A stretch of DNA of 64,000 bases from contig CAJUCX010000009.1 of assembly GCA_910585195.1 (NCBI GenBank), positions 43 through 64,042 on the forward strand. The letters are read 5' to 3'. This document shows, one piece after another, positions 3,610-51,533 of the stretch. How positions within the stretch are numbered: the first letter of the stretch is position 1; each line of letters starts with the position of its first letter. This stretch comes from an uncultured Christensenellaceae bacterium. Its GTDB lineage: Bacteria; Bacillota; Clostridia; Christensenellales; CAG-314. The notes below the pieces were generated by a model. That model had not been told where the DNA came from, made no database searches, and saw nothing but the letters and a program-made list of their open reading frames with translations. A program made the translations under genes and the position numbers.

Positions 3610-3634
3610 CAAAAAACCTGCACATGCAGGTTTT
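3605..3634 (-). terminator. Rho-independent terminator of mgtE
   Basis: Minus-strand RNA UAAAACCUGCAUGUGCAGGUUUUUUGUUGU, a GC-containing hairpin directly after the stop codon followed by a U-tract. Confidence 0.7.
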
Positions 3635-5159
3635 ATGTCAACAGCGCCACGGCAATATTGCAATAAATAATCAAAGACAATGCGTCGACGATGGTTGTTA
3701 TAAACGGGCTTGCTACAACTGCAGGGTCAAGATGGCATTTTTTTGCCAACAACGGCAGCGTACAGCCGATTACTTTGGCTATAACAACCGTAATGAACAT
3801 TGCCAAACAAACTACAAAGGCAATTAGTAAGTCGTTGTAGAGTTGATTTATGAGCATCAATTTTGCAAAGCAGGCAATAGATAATGTGGCACCAAGCAAA
3901 ACGGAAACGCGAATTTCTTTCCATAATACTTTTAATATGTCTTTGAATGCAACTTCGTTTAATGCAAGCCCGCGAATGATAGTAACAGAAGCTTGACTTC
4001 CCGCGTTGCCGCCTGTGTCCATAAGCATCGGTATACATGCAGTTAATGTTATGGAAAATGCTAATGTTGCTTCATATGACTCGATAATCATACCGGTAAA
4101 CGTTGCCGAGACCATAAGCAACATCAGCCACGGTACGCGGTTTAACCATAAGCGCCAAACGCTGGTTTTTAAGTAAGGCTTATCGTTAGGCGTAATTGCC
4201 GCCATTTTTGAAATATCTTCGGTGTTCTCTTCCTGCAAAATATCCATTGCATCGTCGATTGTGATAATACCGACCAAGCGATAATCTTTATCAACAACAG
4301 GCAATGCCAAAAAGTCGTATTTATCAAACTGACGGGCAACAACTTCCCTATCTGTATCCGTTTCTACTGAAACAAAGTTTGTTTCCATTATGGAGGAGAT
4401 TTTTGTATCCATATCGCTGAGCATCAAAGTTTTTGCGCTTACAACACCCAACAATTTGCGTTTTTCGTCTGTTACGTAACAGGTATAAACGGTTTCACTG
4501 TCGACACCCGTTCTGCGTATTTTATCAAATGCCTGCGAAACCGTAAATTCTGCTTTAAGACTTACGTATTCGACAGTCATTATACTGCCGGCGCTGTCTT
4601 TTGGATATTTGAGAATTTGATTTATATTTTCTCTTGTGCTTTTGTCCGCCTGCGCCAACATTCTTATTACGATATTTGCAGGCATATCTTCGATTATATC
4701 TACGGCATCGTCGACAAACAGTTCATCCATCATTATTTGTAATTCTTTGTCGCTGAAAGCCTTAATCAATATTTCTTGAAAGTGGCTGTCAAGTTCTACA
4801 AAAGTATCCGCTGCTATATCGCGCGGTAACAACCTGAAAACAAACGGCAACTGTCCTTCCGGTATTTGGGTAAAAAATATAGCAAGGTCGGTAGGCTCCA
4901 TTTCCGCAAGCAACGGTTTTAAGTCAAGAAAATATTTTTCTTCAAATAAACCTTCTGCGAGCAATTCACGGATGTTGATATCCATTTCGATAAAGGCTTC
5001 GAGTGCAAGGTTTTTTGGCAACAATCGAAATACGTCCACTAAGGAATCTTCCGGCAGCAAAGTTAAAAACTCTGCAATATCTTCTGCGGTTTCTTCGCTT
5101 AAAATATGTTTAAGTTCATCAATTTGATTGTTTTCAAGCAAAGTCAACAATTGTTTCAT
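3633..5159 (-). CDS. mgtE: Magnesium transporter MgtE
   Basis: 508 aa with an N-domain, tandem CBS region, and C-terminal TM domain with the MgtE-typical DTGGNAGSQ motif. Preceded by an M-box and SD AGGAGGGG. Confidence 0.92.
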   Translation of the reverse strand: MKQLLTLLENNQIDELKHILSEETAEDIAEFLTLLPEDSLVDVFRLLPKNLALEAFIEMDINIRELLAEGLFEEKYFLDLKPLLAEMEPTDLAIFFTQIPEGQLPFVFRLLPRDIAADTFVELDSHFQEILIKAFSDKELQIMMDELFVDDAVDIIEDMPANIVIRMLAQADKSTRENINQILKYPKDSAGSIMTVEYVSLKAEFTVSQAFDKIRRTGVDSETVYTCYVTDEKRKLLGVVSAKTLMLSDMDTKISSIMETNFVSVETDTDREVVARQFDKYDFLALPVVDKDYRLVGIITIDDAMDILQEENTEDISKMAAITPNDKPYLKTSVWRLWLNRVPWLMLLMVSATFTGMIIESYEATLAFSITLTACIPMLMDTGGNAGSQASVTIIRGLALNEVAFKDILKVLWKEIRVSVLLGATLSIACFAKLMLINQLYNDLLIAFVVCLAMFITVVIAKVIGCTLPLLAKKCHLDPAVVASPFITTIVDALSLIIYCNIAVALLT

Positions 5160-5218: not shown

Positions 5219-5237
5219 TAAACAACAAGTTTAATAT

Positions 5238-5382
5238 TTCATCGTTCAAGCTTTAGCATCACAGGGCAGTGAAATTGCATTAGGTTACGCCTTGTTTTCG
5301 ACATAGCCTGCTGACCAACTCAAAGTGTCTCCACCTCTCTGCGGCAGCAATCCGTATCCCTGTGGTAGCCTTACCTACCGAA
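5238..5382 (-). promoter_or_regulatory. M-box (ykoK leader) Mg2+ riboswitch aptamer
   Basis: Minus strand reads GGTAGGTAAGGCTACCACAGGGATACGGATTGCTGCCGCAGAGAGG...GGTCAGCAGGCTATGTCGAAAACAAGGCG...CTGCCCTGTGATGCTAAAGCTTGAACGATGAA. This matches my recollection of the B. subtilis mgtE M-box (GTTAGGTGAGGCTCCTGTATGGAGATACGCTGCTGCC...GTGCTAAAGCTCTACGATTGAAG). It sits upstream of mgtE. Confidence 0.9.
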
Positions 5383-5401
5383 TTTTTTACTTACATATAT
5401 T

Positions 5402-5488: not shown

Positions 5489-7438
5489 TTATTCTTGCTT
5501 AGCGTCCGTATCCTTTGGTTGTTCCATAGTTGCTTTTCTGGAAAGCGTTACGCGTTTGCTTTCAAGATTAAATTCCGTAATGGCAACGTCGATTTCATCG
5601 CCTACTTTAAGAACTTTCTTTATATCGTCGACCCATTCCCACGAAACGTTGGAAACGTGCAGCAAACCGTCGACACCCGGTTCGATTTCCACAAATGCGC
5701 CAAACGGAAGTATTCTCGCGACCTTACCTTTGGTAACGCTGCCGACAGGATATTTTTCAAATGCAAGTTGCCATGGGTCAGGCAAAAGCTGTTTGTAACC
5801 TATCGAAACTCTGTTTGATTCTCTATCAAGTTTAAGAACTACAAATTCATAAGTTTTGTTAAGTTCCAAAACTTCGGAAGGTTCTTTAACAGGCGTCCAA
5901 GACAAATCGCTTATGTGCGCGAGACAGTCAAAACCGCGTACGTTTACGAATGCGCCGAATGATGCAAATCTTACAACTTGACCTTCTACGATTTCGCCAA
6001 CTTCAATGTTTTGCCAGAAATTATCTTCTTTTGCTTTCTTTTCCGCTTCGAGAATTACTTTTTGACTTGCAACGATTTTTTTCTTGCCGTCGTCAATTCC
6101 GTCAGGCAAAGCAACGAGTCTGAGTTTTTTGCCAACGTATTTTGATAAGTCTTTTACAAATCCCGAACGAATTTGAGAAGCCGGTATAAATACCGTATAA
6201 CTGCCGAGTTTTGAAAGTAAACCGCCCTTAACTTCTTTTGTTGCGGTAACCGAAAACTCTTCACCGTTTTTAATGCCTTCTATTAAAGCATCGTCTTTAT
6301 AAAGTTCGTCAATGGCTTTTTTGGAAAGTATGATATCTTTGTCAGCCGACAATACAACAACTTCGATAACGTCGCCAACCTTTAATGATTTTTTTACAGC
6401 CTGATAATCTTCTTCAATGGTGATTTCTTCATTAGGGATAAATCCGCCTTTTTTTGAAGTATCCAAAGTAAGGTTAATTCCGTCGTTGCCTATAAAAGAA
6501 ATTCTGCCTTTGAGTTTTTGTCCTTTACGCAATGCTCTGATGTTCAGATTTTCAATTGCATTTTCAAATAACTGTTTATCGGTTGTGATAGTTTCGACTT
6601 TGTTGTCTTTTGTTTGTTCAGCCATATTCGCTAAAACCTCCTCAATCAACTCTTTGGGAGTTGATGCGCCTGCTATTATTCCTAAATTTTCTGTATGCGA
6701 AAAATCAAAATCAAACAATTCTTCAACACTTTCAATACATACGGTATTTTTGCAGTTTGCCAAGCAAATCTCGGCAAGCCGCTTTGTGTTTGAACTGTTT
6801 TTGCCGCCGACGACAATGACAGAATCACATTGCAATGATATGTCGGAGGCATATTTTTGCCTTTCCGTTGTAGTATAGCAAATTGTATTAAAAATTTCAA
6901 GCGTTTTAACATTATCTTTCACAAGATTTTGTAAAGCAGTTTCCACTTTATCAATGTTAAAAGTAGTTTGAAACATTACAAAAACCTTTTCAAAACTATT
7001 CAATTCGAGTTTATTTTCGCCGTTTGTAATAATAGCCGTATTGTCGCACCATCCGTTTACGCCAATCATTTCCGGATGATTTTCATTTCCTATCAGTACT
7101 ATTTTGTAGCCGTTTTTATAATACTCTAGCGCCTTATCGTGTAAAATTTTTACAAACTGACAAGTTGTGTCTACTACTTTTATTTCATGCTCTTTGCAAT
7201 AATCGAAAACCTGCTTTCCTGCGCCGTGCGCGGTTATAATCAAAATGTCGCCGCTTTTTAGTTTTGACAAATCTTTTTCTATCTTTACACCTTTTTGTGC
7301 CAGTTCGGCAACAACAATCGGGTTATGTACGATTTCGCCGTAACAATAAACGTTTGCTCCGGCATACTTAAAAGCAGTTTGTACGGCTTTATTTACGCCG
7401 GAGCAAAATCCGTTATATTTAGGTTGAAGTATTTTCAA
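5489..7438 (-). CDS. ispH: Bifunctional 4-hydroxy-3-methylbut-2-enyl diphosphate reductase (IspH/LytB) fused to S1 RNA-binding domains (ribosomal protein S1-like)
   Basis: 649 aa. The N-terminal ~280 aa is IspH-like (GFCSGVNKAV, HNP, ITAHG, NTIC). The C-terminal ~370 aa carries repeated S1 motifs (GxVxxxxxFGAFVxI/V, e.g. FASFGAFVNV, LPFGAFVEI). cmk-plsC-S1 synteny. Confidence 0.9.
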   Translation of the reverse strand: MKILQPKYNGFCSGVNKAVQTAFKYAGANVYCYGEIVHNPIVVAELAQKGVKIEKDLSKLKSGDILIITAHGAGKQVFDYCKEHEIKVVDTTCQFVKILHDKALEYYKNGYKIVLIGNENHPEMIGVNGWCDNTAIITNGENKLELNSFEKVFVMFQTTFNIDKVETALQNLVKDNVKTLEIFNTICYTTTERQKYASDISLQCDSVIVVGGKNSSNTKRLAEICLANCKNTVCIESVEELFDFDFSHTENLGIIAGASTPKELIEEVLANMAEQTKDNKVETITTDKQLFENAIENLNIRALRKGQKLKGRISFIGNDGINLTLDTSKKGGFIPNEEITIEEDYQAVKKSLKVGDVIEVVVLSADKDIILSKKAIDELYKDDALIEGIKNGEEFSVTATKEVKGGLLSKLGSYTVFIPASQIRSGFVKDLSKYVGKKLRLVALPDGIDDGKKKIVASQKVILEAEKKAKEDNFWQNIEVGEIVEGQVVRFASFGAFVNVRGFDCLAHISDLSWTPVKEPSEVLELNKTYEFVVLKLDRESNRVSIGYKQLLPDPWQLAFEKYPVGSVTKGKVARILPFGAFVEIEPGVDGLLHVSNVSWEWVDDIKKVLKVGDEIDVAITEFNLESKRVTLSRKATMEQPKDTDAKQE

Positions 7439-28573: not shown

Positions 28574-29158
28574 TTAGTCTTTCTTAAACACAGACAGTGT
28601 TTTTGCGACAAAAAATATAATTTTGTTTGATTTTGACATTGCGTACGATTTGCCCAGTGCTTTGCCTGAAACCATAAGTGCGGCAATAACGGCACTGAAC
28701 AATACGCTGATGAATATAGAACCATTGTTTACAAACTGCATCAATACTATAGCGCCGCCGCAAGCACCGCTGACTATGCCGCAAATATCACCGATTATGT
28801 CCGCGCATACCGACGATACTTTTTCTGCATTTTTGACGAGTTTAACAGCCATTTTTGCACCCTTTACTTTGCGTGCCGACATAGATAAAAACGGCTCTAT
28901 ATCGCAAGCGGTTACGGCAGTGCCTATCATATCGAAGAATATCGAAATCAATATGATGATTATTATCAAAACGTATGCAATTACCAAATTTGTATTGCCG
29001 AGTACAAGCTCCGACAATAGACTGAACACGAATGATAAAAAAAGCGTTATAATAAGAGCATACAAAGGCCACAAATTTTTCTTTTTAGCCTTTTTATGCT
29101 TTTCGTCTTCTTTTTTTTGTTTTTGTATAGGTTGTTGCTCGTCTGAATTGTGTTTCAA
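28574..29158 (-). CDS. oapA: OLE-associated membrane protein OapA-like (4-TM, basic N-terminus)
   Basis: ~194 aa with no ATG start. The likely start is TTG at 29158, 6 nt after GAGG (29168-29165); the track ORF uses TTG at 29170. Four hydrophobic helices and a Lys-rich N-terminus (KQKKEDEKHKKAKKK). The stop is 2 nt before the dxs start, immediately 3' of the OLE-like RNA. Confidence 0.75.
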   Translation of the reverse strand: MKHNSDEQQPIQKQKKEDEKHKKAKKKNLWPLYALIITLFLSFVFSLLSELVLGNTNLVIAYVLIIIIILISIFFDMIGTAVTACDIEPFLSMSARKVKGAKMAVKLVKNAEKVSSVCADIIGDICGIVSGACGGAIVLMQFVNNGSIFISVLFSAVIAALMVSGKALGKSYAMSKSNKIIFFVAKTLSVFKKD

Positions 29159-29180
29159 AATTAACCTCAAAAAAATAAAA

Positions 29181-29760
29181 CAGGTGGTGGTAAATTAGGT
29201 AAACCTTACGGCATAGGTTCAGTAGGATTTCCCTGCAAGATACTTCCCGTCGCCGTAGAAGCAGTTTCCTTTTGAATCTTGCATCGCGCCGTTGCCGTGC
29301 GTGAAACTGAATCGCCACTTAGTCCGTACTATAATCCCTAAAATACCTGAAATACAGCCTAGAAGATTTCCTTAACAAAGACCTAAACATCTAGCCTCTT
29401 TTGCAACACATATTTCATCCCGCAATCACCTTATTCCGTTCGCCAACGAAACAAAGGTGTGTTCGGGAATCCCTATGAAATCACTCAAGGCAGGCTACAC
29501 TGTACACAGCAAAATTACCGCATAGCAGGTTAACCTTATTCAGTAACAAGACAACGCCCTGCCACCGAGATAAGCCTCCACGGAAATTGGGAATCGGTCG
29601 TATGCCATTACAACTTACCCAAAAACCTTAACTTCCAGCATCAGCCCCTGTTTGGGCAACAAAAGCCAACACAAGAAACTTCATCGATATGCCCTTTGAC
29701 GATTTTTTACTCCCGTCTTGGATGCATAGGTGTTTGACTAGGATACTGCACCACCAGTTT
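29181..29760 (-). ncRNA. OLE (ornate, large, extremophilic) RNA
   Basis: ~580-nt ORF-poor, visibly GC-richer segment in a tightly packed operon. Nested helices are readable: closing helix 29183-29189 / 29749-29755 (GGUGGUG/CACCACC), 29234-29241 / 29276-29283 (8 bp), 29427-29432 / 29454-29459, 29489-29494 / 29558-29563. The context ispA-[RNA]-4TM protein-dxs-nadK-argR-recN, with nusB-folD-xseAB upstream, is the published OLE/oapA neighbourhood. Confidence 0.85.
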
Positions 29761-29766
29761 CTAATT

Positions 29767-29795
29767 ATTTTAACACATCTTTACAAAATTATCAA
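29767..29795 (-). promoter_or_regulatory. Candidate sigmaA promoter immediately upstream of the OLE RNA
   Basis: Minus strand: TTGATA (29795-29790), 17 nt ending in TGT, TAAAAT (29772-29767). The predicted TSS near 29760 is just 5' of the closing helix. Confidence 0.5.
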
Positions 29796-48365: not shown

Positions 48366-48827
48366 TTAAAATCTAATCAATGGTTCTATTAAAGCGGTTT
48401 TGTCTTTTTCAAAAGTAAAACAACCGTCTTTATTTTTTATTTTGAAAGTTTTTTCGTCAAACTCGCACAACACGCCTTCATAAATCTTTTTGCCGTCTAT
48501 CGGTGCAAAAAGTTTGACGACAATTTCCTTGTTTTCATTCCGTTGAAAATCACGAAACGTTTTCAGCGGTCTGTCTATACCTAAGGAAGAAACGTTTAGA
48601 ATATATGACTTACCTTGCGTAGGGTCAAGAACATCAAGCGGCTCGTCGATAAGCCTATGCAATTTTTCACAATCATTTATATCGACACCGCCGACTTTAT
48701 CTATAAAAATCGTTAAATTCATACCGTTGGCTTTTTTTGCATATTCAACTTCTACAAGTTCCACCCCGCATTCTTCGGCATAAGGTAAAACCAACTTTTC
48801 AACAATTTCGCAAACTTTTCCAGCCAT
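48366..48827 (-). CDS. rimP: Ribosome maturation factor RimP
   Basis: MAGKVCEIVEKLVLPYAEECGVELVEVEY... Start at ATG 48827 with SD AAGGAAGG. The upstream extension of the track ORF runs through a leader hairpin. Confidence 0.92.
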   Translation of the reverse strand: MAGKVCEIVEKLVLPYAEECGVELVEVEYAKKANGMNLTIFIDKVGGVDINDCEKLHRLIDEPLDVLDPTQGKSYILNVSSLGIDRPLKTFRDFQRNENKEIVVKLFAPIDGKKIYEGVLCEFDEKTFKIKNKDGCFTFEKDKTALIEPLIRF

Positions 48828-48846
48828 TGCGCCTTCCTTAAAATGA

Positions 48847-48876
48847 CTTGAGAGCAGGGACAACCCTACTCTCAAG
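48847..48876 (-). promoter_or_regulatory. 5' leader stem-loop of the rimP-nusA-infB operon
   Basis: 8-bp stem CUUGAGAG / CUCUCAAG with a 14-nt GC-rich loop, between the predicted TSS and the rimP SD. On the minus strand it is followed by UCAUUUU. Confidence 0.5.
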
Positions 48877-48900: not shown

Positions 48901-48929
48901 AGTATAGCACAATCTTTAATTTTTTACAA
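48901..48929 (-). promoter_or_regulatory. SigmaA promoter of the rimP-nusA-infB operon
   Basis: Minus strand: TTGTAA (48929-48924), 17 nt ending in TGC (extended -10), TATACT (48906-48901). Confidence 0.55.
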
Positions 48930-48937
48930 CAATTTTT

Positions 48938-50491
48938 TTACATTTCTGCGCCCATTTCTATAAGTTTCAAAAATATATCGGCAGTCATCAACGAATCGTC
49001 GACAGCCCTATGCGCATTGTCTCGTTTAACGCCCAAAAAATCGGCAATTGTACCCAATTTATAGTTGTGCGGAACTTCTTCCCCGTTATGCAAAGACTTG
49101 AAATACTTTCTTGCCATTGACAAAGTGTCGACTTGCTGATGATTAAAAATAAATCCGCTGTCTTTTGTATTAAACTTCAAAAACAATCCGTCAAAGTCAA
49201 CAATGTTATGTCCTACCAACGCCGCACCATTGCAATATTTATAAAAATCCGCAATAATTTCAGGAAAGGTTGGTGCAGACTCTACCATGGCATCGATTAT
49301 GCCTGTCAACTCTGAAATTTCGTTTGGTATTTTACATTCCGGATTAACGAAAGTTGAAAATGTATCCACAATTTTACCGTTGACTATTCTTACGGCACCG
49401 AGTTCTATAATTTTATTTGTAATATAACTTTTACCCGTAGTTTCAAGGTCAAAAACCACAAACGTCTTGTCTTGCAATCTCTTATCAACCTTTTTTTCTT
49501 CAAACAAATTACCTTGTTTATTGGCGATAAAAATCTGCGGTTTGATTACCGCGTATTCCTCCGGCACAGGTCTGCTTACTTGCTTTTCATATTCGTCGTC
49601 GCAAATTTTGCATTTGCAAATTCTGTACGCACGGAGTTCCAACTCTTGCGTATAGGTATTTTCAACCGCCTGACCGCCTATAAGCAATTCATCCCCGATT
49701 TTCAATTCTTTCAACTTTATGTACTTTGTTTCGTCGGAAAAAACAACCACTCCTATCCGACCGGTAAAATCAACCAAATCAAATTTGAAAAGCGTCAACC
49801 CTTTTGGTGTAACCACTTCACGCATACTTTCTATACGTCCGCATACCGTAACCGCTTTTTCCGGTTGAATTAAATCGACTATATACTGCGGTCTGTCGTT
49901 TATTACTTTATCGATAAATGACTCTACGTTCTCTACGTTGATTTTTCTTTGTGGTTTATACAAAACCTTCGTTATTTGAGATTCACGCATAACATCTGTT
50001 TTTTTCATAAGTTCGTTAACGTCAACAGAATTTTCTATCACGTCGAATTTCACTTTGATATCATAATTGCTTATAGATTTGAAGTAGTTTGAAACTTTTT
50101 CTAAAAATTCGTTTTGCTCCAACATTTGACGAAGTTCAGGCGTTACGGTAACTATGACAGTAAATATATCCTCACTTTCTTCCACGACGGTTTTTTCCGT
50201 GTCAAACTTGGAGGCAAAAAAGAAAAACTCTCTTTTAACATAATTTATAAAGGTATTTTTTAATATATCTTTATCAAAATAGTCTTTGATATATTTAATT
50301 TTAAGATTGAATTTGTTTTTTACCGCCTCCTGACAAACGGCTTCTATTTGCTGTTTTTGCTGCTCGGTCAAGTCTTGTTTTGTTGAAAAACATAATTCAA
50401 GAATACGGCTCTTTTTTTCAACAACCGCACTGTACAATTTCAAATCATCAAACTGTCCCCGACCTGTTTGTCTTACGTCATCTAAAAGCAT
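48938..50491 (-). CDS. PolC-like N-terminal domain + OB fold + DEDDh 3'-5' exonuclease protein (no PHP or polymerase domains)
   Basis: 517 aa. The N-terminal ~200 aa and OB segment (VTVCGRIESMREVVTPKGLTLFKFDLVDFTGRIGVVVF) resemble the PolC N-terminus. Exo motifs are FVVFDLETTG, LVGHNIVDFDGLFL and HRAVDDSLMTADIF. The ORF is bounded by ispG (4-nt gap) and the rimP promoter. Confidence 0.75.
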   Translation of the reverse strand: MLLDDVRQTGRGQFDDLKLYSAVVEKKSRILELCFSTKQDLTEQQKQQIEAVCQEAVKNKFNLKIKYIKDYFDKDILKNTFINYVKREFFFFASKFDTEKTVVEESEDIFTVIVTVTPELRQMLEQNEFLEKVSNYFKSISNYDIKVKFDVIENSVDVNELMKKTDVMRESQITKVLYKPQRKINVENVESFIDKVINDRPQYIVDLIQPEKAVTVCGRIESMREVVTPKGLTLFKFDLVDFTGRIGVVVFSDETKYIKLKELKIGDELLIGGQAVENTYTQELELRAYRICKCKICDDEYEKQVSRPVPEEYAVIKPQIFIANKQGNLFEEKKVDKRLQDKTFVVFDLETTGKSYITNKIIELGAVRIVNGKIVDTFSTFVNPECKIPNEISELTGIIDAMVESAPTFPEIIADFYKYCNGAALVGHNIVDFDGLFLKFNTKDSGFIFNHQQVDTLSMARKYFKSLHNGEEVPHNYKLGTIADFLGVKRDNAHRAVDDSLMTADIFLKLIEMGAEM

Positions 50492-50495
50492 AATA

Positions 50496-51533
50496 TCAAA
50501 TAATTAAATCAATCTCTTTTTTGAATTCTTCCAAAACATTCGAAGAATCAACCGTTCTATATACTTCCCCTTTTTTGAAAAACACGACTTTTCCATTGCC
50601 GCCGGCAAGTCCCAAATCTGCCTCTTTTGCCTCACCGGGGCCGTTAACGACACAGCCCATTACTGCAATTTTAAGCGGTTTTTTTACATTTGCTACATAT
50701 TGCTTAACTTGTCTCGCTACGCCGATAAGGTCAAATTTACAGCGTCCGCAAGTAGGACACGAAACCACTTCGCAATAATTGCCGTCTTTGCCTATTGCTC
50801 GCAAAATTTCTTTGGCAAACAAAACTTCTTCAATCGGGTCTTCCGTCAACGATACTCTTATTGTATCACCAACGCCATCCAAAAGCAAACTTCCTATACC
50901 TATTGCGGATTTTGCCTTTGCCGAGTCCCCCGCTCCGCTTTCCGTAATGCCGACGTGTTGCGGATAGTCGGTTTTTTGCGCCAACAACCTGCACGCGTCT
51001 ACCGTCTTTTTTACCGAACTTGATTTTACCGATAAGACTATATTGAAAAAGTTGCTGGACTCAAAAAACTTAACGTAATTCAGCGCACTGTCGACTAACG
51101 CTTCGGCAGTATTGCCGTATTTGTCAAGCGAAGATTTATTTAGAGAACCGCCGTTTACGCCTATCCTGATAGGAATATTATATTTCTTTGCAGTGTTTGT
51201 AACTTCTTTCAAATGCTCGTCGGAGTCTATATTGCCTGGGTTAATTCGTATTTTATCGGCGCCGTGTTTAATGGCAGAAATTGCAAGACGGTAATCAAAA
51301 TGAATATCAGCAACCAAGGGAATATTTATTTGCTTTTTGATTGCTTGTATTGCAGAAGCGTCTTCTTCAGAAGTTACGGCAACTCTTACTATTTCGCAAC
51401 CGACATTTTCAAGACTGCTTATTTGTTTTACCGTTGCGCAAATATCACAAGTAGCAGTATTAGTCATTGACTGTACTGCCACTTTATTTGAACCGCCTAT
51501 AAAAACATTTCCTATCTTAATTTCTTTAGTCAT
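50496..51533 (-). CDS. ispG: 4-hydroxy-3-methylbut-2-en-1-yl diphosphate synthase (flavodoxin)
   Basis: 345 aa. VQSMTNT, RVAV, RINPGNI, and the C-terminal Cys cluster CPTCGRC ... MGCVVNGPGE. Confidence 0.95.
   Translation of the reverse strand: MTKEIKIGNVFIGGSNKVAVQSMTNTATCDICATVKQISSLENVGCEIVRVAVTSEEDASAIQAIKKQINIPLVADIHFDYRLAISAIKHGADKIRINPGNIDSDEHLKEVTNTAKKYNIPIRIGVNGGSLNKSSLDKYGNTAEALVDSALNYVKFFESSNFFNIVLSVKSSSVKKTVDACRLLAQKTDYPQHVGITESGAGDSAKAKSAIGIGSLLLDGVGDTIRVSLTEDPIEEVLFAKEILRAIGKDGNYCEVVSCPTCGRCKFDLIGVARQVKQYVANVKKPLKIAVMGCVVNGPGEAKEADLGLAGGNGKVVFFKKGEVYRTVDSSNVLEEFKKEIDLII

Follow-up and report, generated by a model that had tools for sequence, protein, structure and literature searches.

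In the Firmicutes PolC counts as the hallmark replicase, and in B. subtilis and Clostridium its gene usually lies upstream of rimP-nusA. We asked what a bacterium keeps in this slot when the gene found there is far too short for a PolC. The case arises in an uncultured Christensenellaceae bacterium, in a 64,000-nucleotide stretch of contig CAJUCX010000009.1 (assembly GCA_910585195.1, positions 43 to 64,042), referred to below as the window. Its gene order is uppS-cdsA-dxr-rseP-ispG-X-rimP-nusA-ylxR-ylxQ-infB, where X is an intact open reading frame (ORF) of 517 residues with an ATG start, identified from the ORF list and its translation. An initial annotation, made from the sequence alone, had described a clean ORF of this size and proposed that it is a stand-alone protein composed of the N-terminal domains, the OB fold and the proofreading exonuclease of PolC, possibly a dedicated proofreading or processing subunit. 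The ORF is indeed present (48938..50491, minus strand), and the comparisons presented here support the proposed make-up. They point to a polymerase-less PolC-like protein with the following parts.

48938..50491, minus strand: the whole gene, encoding a polymerase-less PolC-like protein with the order N-terminal domain (NTD), OB fold, linker and exonuclease domain (Exo); based on the ORF, the same protein on independent assemblies, and family size.
50027..50491, minus strand: NTD, aa 1-155, two tandem small alpha/beta subdomains, homologous to PolC NI and NII; based on AlphaFold2 (AF2), hhalign, and a ratio of non-synonymous to synonymous substitution rates (dN/dS) of 0.068.
49907..50026, minus strand: long helix and lead-in to the OB fold, aa 156-195, including the nearly invariant R182; based on AF2, conservation, and the PolC alignment.
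49604..49906, minus strand: OB fold of the PolC type, aa 196-296; Pfam PF01336 at 1e-7, PolC 3f2b at 4e-7.
49466..49603, minus strand: linker between OB and Exo, in place of the first PHP half (PHP-N), aa 297-342, with conserved Y313, V/I316, and P318; based on column counts in 118 sequences.
49502..49516, minus strand: QGNLF, aa 326-330, a candidate beta-clamp-binding motif; based on translation and conservation.
48941..49465, minus strand: DEDDh 3'-5' exonuclease of the PolC/DnaQ type, aa 343-517; RNase_T at 5e-33, PRK00448, 2p1j, 9qpc.

The C-terminal domain is a complete DEDDh exonuclease of the PolC type, as had been claimed. The Pfam scan that the initial annotation suggested as a check found both RNase_T (aa 345-507, E 5e-33) and the OB fold (E 1e-7) in the protein. 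Among NCBIfam models, that of PolC (PRK00448) fits Exo best, and of the solved structures the T. maritima PolC exonuclease 2p1j (profile search, 1.5e-60) and E. faecium PolC 9qpc come closest. The three motifs quoted earlier, FVVFDLETTG, HNIVDFDGLFL and HRAVDD, are all present in the translation, and the five catalytic residues D348, E350, D434, H494, and D499 (D-x-E, D, H-x4-D) are invariant in 118 of 118 family sequences. The domain passed the dnaQ family model TIGR00573 (103.7 bits against a cut-off of 71.5) and failed the proteobacterial model TIGR01406, dnaQ_proteo (76 bits against 222.7). Mean identity of the family Exo is 43% to clostridial PolC and 38-39% to Thermotoga/Enterococcus PolC, compared with 50% within the family. 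A protein search with Exo alone returned short proteins and fragments only and no full-length PolCs; RNase T, oligoribonuclease, ExoX, and the DinG exonuclease are also detectable matches of this domain. A separate family of about 221 aa (P0219-P0291), from Lachnospiraceae and Eubacterium metagenome-assembled genomes (MAGs), joins a topoisomerase-type C4 zinc finger (PF01396) to a DEDDh exonuclease that is 36-43% identical to Exo of the 517-aa protein.

The OB fold is likewise of the PolC type. The tRNA_anti-codon OB model (PF01336) matched aa 214-291, the best solved OB for the family profile is that of Geobacillus PolC (3f2b, 4e-7), and in a local search the OB folds of Lachnospiraceae PolCs matched the family at 3e-10 to 1e-4. 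The region ahead of it (aa 156-195) aligns with the pre-OB segment of PolC. It contains a helix predicted by AF2 at aa 158-177, where the predicted local distance difference test (pLDDT) falls to 52-63, and R182, which is kept in at least 90% of family sequences.

The NTD presented a harder case. AF2 predicts two small subdomains, beta-beta-alpha-beta followed by alpha-beta-beta-alpha-alpha-beta, with pLDDT of about 83-91. When the protein was scanned by itself, neither Pfam nor NCBIfam assigned the NTD, and the Pfam model of PolC N-terminus I (PF14480) was touched by one of 50 family members (E 0.012). PolC NTDs are poorly conserved in sequence (PMC3919608). We compared an NTD-only profile with 15 diverse PolC N-termini, six of them closely related and nine from the table in the supplement to Timinskas et al. 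2013, using hhalign. The match had a Prob of 85% and a P of 5.8e-6 over 132 colinear columns, with query aa 15-156 placed on PolC 29-169, and a score of 45.8, whereas the reversed query and 30 column-shuffled queries scored no higher than 17.8 (P at least 0.11). Against the six closely related PolCs alone the same register was found with a Prob of 23% and a P of 9e-4. Because this profile-profile signal comes with negative controls, we accept that the family NTD is homologous to PolC NI/NII, in agreement with the earlier reading of a PolC-like N-terminus. With the NTD-only AF2 model, Foldseek returned generic tandem alpha/beta domains (dual-BON, NusA KH, PrgH) at E of about 3e-4, and matched neither a PolC NTD nor tau domain V.

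Other parts of PolC are missing. The whole family profile is colinear with PolC 13-630, except that it omits the PHP-N segment of about 105 aa with its HxH motif. The 517-aa protein terminates 4-5 residues past Exo. Neither PHP (PF02811) nor the Pol3 palm/thumb/fingers nor (HhH)2 was found in the 517 aa with Pfam and NCBIfam, and the PolC models failed (PRK00448, 176 bits against 873; TIGR01405, 146 against 1043), which agrees with the earlier claim that the flanking PHP halves and the polymerase core are absent. PolC has its clamp motif at the extreme C-terminus, at positions 1416-1452 (Timinskas 2013 table). The PolCs from the Lachnospiraceae loci described below end in QLSLF, and the 517-aa protein has no such ending.

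In the place of PHP-N is a 46-aa linker of low pLDDT, mostly variable but with one conserved pentapeptide that fits the general form of a beta-clamp-binding motif. Q-x-x-[LMFIV]-[FLM] occurs in 110 of the 118 family sequences, as QGNLF here and as QADLF, QTDMF, QVDLF, or QADMF elsewhere; AF2 models QGNLF as coil with pLDDT of about 74. The known weaker clamp motifs include QADMF of E. coli alpha and QTSMAF of E. coli epsilon, the latter beside its exonuclease domain, and QLSLF represents the strong type. By sequence, the linker pentapeptide resembles the weak QADMF/QTSMAF type more closely than QLSLF, and it may bind the beta clamp. This conserved clamp-like motif had been missed by the initial annotation, and it strengthens the proposal of a dedicated proofreading or processing subunit.

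The surroundings of the gene in the window are compact.

50496..51533, minus strand: ispG (gcpE), the next gene upstream, with its stop codon 4 nt ahead of the ATG of the 517-aa gene.
48366..48875, minus strand: rimP, the downstream neighbour, followed by nusA-ylxR-ylxQ-infB.
48901..48929, minus strand: promoter-like site TTGTAA-17-TATACT with TG, between the 517-aa gene and rimP; from a consensus scan.

The spacer between the ispG stop and the ATG consists of TATT, so the description of a 4-nt gap with no room for polymerase remnants is borne out. On the other side, 62 nt separate the gene from the longest rimP ORF and about 110 nt from the rimP start annotated in the public assembly. A rimP promoter had been claimed here; the gap does contain the promoter-like site, with an extended -10 TG, but such sites are no commoner in the region than in shuffled sequence. 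The longest ORF in the window is infB (876 aa), and therefore neither polC nor dnaE lies within these 64 kb. Nor did we find a polymerase past the window ends, one of which is the contig end while the other leads to dprA-topA-trmFO-hslVU-aspS. An antisense ORF of 133 aa inside the 517-aa gene (49472-49873, plus strand) is unsupported and probably spurious.

To place the protein among its relatives we relied on three surveys. An initial protein search yielded relatives of about 500-560 aa sharing the OB and RNase_T architecture. A profile search of the family against 1.84 billion cluster representatives, of which the best 150 matches were examined, gave at least 150 full-length clusters at 50% identity, all of 480-577 aa and with E of 1e-125 or better, which marks the family as large. 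Among these best 150 clusters there were neither long nor intermediate forms, and no full-length member was found in the phage collection. In public records the family is named 'ribonuclease H-like domain-containing protein', 'hypothetical protein', or 'epsilon subunit family exonuclease'. The third survey was a locus scan with one genome per GTDB species, in which 80 loci were kept. The initial annotation had proposed looking for the same architecture at this locus in related genomes, and the short protein was present in 71 of the 80, the other nine having full-length PolC.

In almost every carrier locus the short gene is preceded by ispG, or by rseP in loci lacking ispG, and followed by rimP-nusA-ylxR-infB. 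With few exceptions the carriers are MAGs of uncultured gut bacteria, under the labels Clostridia, Christensenellaceae, Christensenella, or Subdoligranulum sp. CAG:314, and also Candidatus Scatosoma, Coproplasma, Gallimonas, and Onthoplasma, Candidatus genera assigned to class Clostridia in NCBI. The nine PolC loci come from eight Lachnospiraceae and one Cellulosilyticaceae MAG; six of the PolCs were extracted in full and are 1460-1520 aa long. The claim that the short gene sits in the normal polC slot is supported on its ispG side: in five Lachnospiraceae loci the run uppS-cdsA-dxr-rseP-ispG is followed by PolC. The genes 3' of polC differ there, so that the polC-rimP-nusA adjacency, established for Bacillus and Clostridium, was not reproduced in these loci. 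No polymerase gene was found within 10 kb of the short gene in any of about 70 loci. Among the large ORFs near the locus (about 90 loci screened) were BspA/InlB-repeat surface proteins, beta-lactamase-family proteins, PurL, SMC, and InfB.

A few relatives have a wider gap before rimP, occupied by 1182-aa BspA-LRR / InlB-B-repeat surface proteins or by beta-lactamase-family proteins.

Genes inserted between the short gene and rimP: L039, 4964-8512; L081, 11411-14962; L040, 11472-12638; L043, 11490-12689.

Three members in the same slot (L013, L019, L020) belong to MAGs assigned to Spirochaetales, Lachnospiraceae, and Thermoanaerobacterales, probably through misclassification by the submitters or binning issues and not because the family is truly widespread.

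What could such a protein do? The explanation that we favour, with confidence only somewhat above even, is that it is a clamp-tethered exonuclease derived from PolC that proofreads in trans for a DnaE-type replicase. The protein would descend from the replicase PolC, stripped of both PHP halves, palm/thumb/fingers, (HhH)2, and the C-terminal clamp tail, with the NI/NII domain, the OB fold, and the DEDDh exonuclease retained. The first PHP half would have been swapped for a short exposed linker with the conserved Q-x-[D/N]-[L/M/F]-F, through which the protein might dock on the beta clamp at the primer terminus, in the manner of E. coli epsilon and mycobacterial DnaQ. Holding DNA or touching other parts of the replisome could fall to the OB fold, perhaps together with the NTD, while the exonuclease would trim mismatched 3' ends in trans for the DnaE-type polymerase. 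With no polymerase left at the ancestral polC locus, the partner and replicase would be DnaE1. Clostridia normally possess PolC and DnaE1; in the latter the PHP site is intact, and a clamp motif and a putative surface for epsilon are present (PMC3919608). By its features clostridial DnaE1 could serve as a replicase on its own, and there are Clostridia with DnaE1 alone (PMC3919608), so that loss of the PolC polymerase is plausible in this class. The comparisons establish the architecture, the PolC homology of each domain, the intact catalytic residues, conservation with purifying selection, the kept synteny, and the conserved linker motif, whereas clamp binding, the proofreading role, the partnership with DnaE1, and a genome-wide loss of PolC are inferences from them.

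Several observations weigh against this explanation. Clostridial DnaE1 usually carries an active PHP proofreader (PMC12926913), and therefore an extra proofreader is not obviously required. The polymerase search covered the 64-kb window, its flanks, and the surroundings of the carrier loci, and the function of the family is deduced from sequence comparison and predicted structure. Position 2 of the linker motif is small or polar (T/A/G/S/D), not the L/I/V/M of strong clamp binders. In a neighbour-joining tree of Exo domains, bootstrap values were 12% or less for the groupings tested, leaving the branching of the family relative to PolC unsettled. As for the NTD, its own profile found nothing among PDB sequences when searched as hidden Markov model against sequence and reached E of about 1 with Lachnospiraceae PolCs. 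Foldseek cannot decide the question either, because the PolC NTD is not resolved in the solved structures; its absence from the electron cryomicroscopy structures of the E. faecium enzyme (PMC12592400) blocks a structural comparison.

Among the alternatives, an artefact (polC partly deleted in the assembly) or a decaying pseudogene (polC recently truncated) would be in keeping with the fact that the carrier genomes found are metagenome assemblies. The results exclude such an origin. The initial annotation had judged the gene not to be a recent pseudogene and had named an assembly deletion as a point to check; contigs of independent assemblies, among them one each from NCBI (a MAG), Logan, and ENA, encode the identical 517-aa protein, which speaks against a deletion of this kind, and the uniform length of at least 150 clusters, the invariant catalytic residues, and an intergenic space too small for remnants all speak for an intact gene. 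Compared with one 80%-identical orthologue, the gene has dN/dS values of 0.035-0.09 per domain (NTD 0.068, OB about 0.07, Exo 0.035); dS is near saturation in this comparison, but pN remains far below pS in each domain, and purifying selection acts on all of them.

A split or duplicated PolC deserves more attention. Here a polymerase-competent PolC would be encoded elsewhere in the genome, and the 517-aa protein would be its exonuclease in trans or a sub-functionalised paralogue. PolC variants of the form NTD-OB-PHP-Pol3-HhH, which are devoid of Exo, are known only from Clostridia and Negativicutes (PMC3919608), making a complementary stand-alone exonuclease conceivable. Strong gene-strand bias is statistically associated with PolC (PMC11040001), and the minus strand of the window carries 55 of the 56 gene-like ORFs of at least 150 aa, which cover 84% of it. 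Strand composition itself was uninformative: the coding strand is rich in G and A overall (GC skew +0.13, AT skew +0.11), but this purine excess vanishes at 4-fold degenerate sites (-0.01 and -0.04), so the asymmetry is coding-related and not mutational. Against a split stand the occupation of the ancestral polC slot itself by the short gene in about 70 species, the lack of a polymerase gene within 10 kb in those loci, and the lack of long or intermediate forms among the best 150 clusters. What is more, the known Exo-less PolCs retain their own NTD and OB, and the 517-aa protein would therefore duplicate both domains. We consider this alternative unlikely, though worth keeping in view. A role outside replication fidelity, for example as a clamp-recruited end-trimmer in repair or recombination, or as an RNase-T-like trimmer of RNA 3' ends linked to rimP-nusA-infB, is a weaker rival and appears improbable to us. 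The DEDDh superfamily members detectable with Exo include RNase T and oligoribonuclease besides ExoX and the DinG exonuclease, OB folds can bind either RNA or DNA, and the neighbouring genes serve ribosome maturation and transcription. This neighbourhood, however, is inherited from polC and is therefore uninformative on function; the gene adjoins ispG, with only 4 nt between them, and a promoter-like site parts it from rimP. PolC proofreading domains are by far its nearest relatives, and the clamp-type motif suggests DNA transactions.

Clamp-tethered proofreading for DnaE1, the explanation favoured above, can be set beside several known systems. With PolC the protein shares NI/NII, OB, and DEDDh exonuclease in the same order and the position 3' of uppS-cdsA-dxr-rseP-ispG. 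It differs in having 517 aa in place of about 1430-1520, in lacking the PHP halves, Pol3, (HhH)2, and the C-terminal QLSLF, and in having its clamp-like motif internally, in the new linker at the former PHP-N site. Like E. coli epsilon (DnaQ), it is a stand-alone DEDDh proofreading-type exonuclease, and it passes TIGR00573. Unlike epsilon, it has no C-terminal tail that could bind alpha/PHP, since it ends right after the exonuclease, and it carries about 300 additional N-terminal residues (PolC NTD and OB), with an Exo nearer to that of PolC.

The non-canonical DnaQ of mycobacteria binds the clamp via Q[Y/L]ALF and proofreads beside the PHP proofreader of DnaE1 (PMC11348249). The 517-aa family resembles it in combining a DnaQ-family exonuclease with a clamp motif, a candidate one in our case, and in the clostridial DnaE1 setting an extra DnaQ-type proofreader would by analogy be expected to work beside the PHP proofreader. 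The two have arisen independently and differ in build, with BRCT and a C-terminal motif in the mycobacterial protein and with PolC NTD, OB, and an internal motif in the 517-aa family; no BRCT domain was found in Pfam scans of 50 family members. The Exo-less PolCs of Clostridia and Negativicutes are also variants within the PolC+DnaE1 group and illustrate that the modules are evolutionarily separable (PMC3919608), but they are the reciprocal case, keeping the polymerase where the 517-aa family keeps the exonuclease. In Bacteroidetes, too, a DnaQ-type proofreader has changed its place with respect to a C-family polymerase, as an exonuclease fused to the N-terminus of DnaE1 (PMC3919608); there the proofreader was joined to the polymerase, and here it has split off from one.

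Every domain of the protein is known, but no earlier description seems to exist of the arrangement NTD-OB-(clamp-motif linker)-Exo, conserved in a large family at the polC locus. Text searches of two comprehensive surveys of C-family polymerases found no mention of the non-polymerase half of PolC as a protein of its own, one of the surveys having excluded sequences without a polymerase active site. A literature search on PolC with Christensenellales or Christensenellaceae, or on PolC loss, found nothing relevant.

A wider and more tentative proposal, possible but short of probable, is that a lineage of gut Clostridia (Christensenellaceae-like MAGs, CAG:314, Ca. Scatosoma, Coproplasma, Gallimonas) gave up the PolC polymerase and replicates by DnaE1 alone, with polC converted in situ to a third independently evolved clamp-tethered DnaQ proofreader. 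If the conversion did take place in situ, the retained NTD and OB would imply a function in the replisome that is independent of the polymerase. The significance depends mainly on whether the carrier genomes are truly without a PolC polymerase. Should they be, they would provide a natural experiment on clostridial DnaE1 replicating a chromosome alone, a third independent path to a clamp-bound DnaQ proofreader, and a handle on the role of the PolC NTD and OB, which are under purifying selection with no polymerase attached. Such abundant gut commensals might also be intrinsically insensitive to antibiotics that target PolC, such as ibezapolstat.

Three further features of the window touch none of these questions. 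An M-box (Mg2+) riboswitch (5231-5389, minus strand) lies upstream of an mgtE-type transporter gene (3633-5159). A 649-aa ORF (5489-7438, minus strand) is an ispH-S1 fusion, with LytB/IspH and S1 RNA-binding domains identified with Pfam. A full-length OLE (ornate large extremophilic) RNA was found at 29168-29770 on the minus strand (462 bits, E 2e-132), directly upstream of and abutting a 198-aa ORF at 28574-29170; its occurrence in a gut Clostridia MAG may merit recording.

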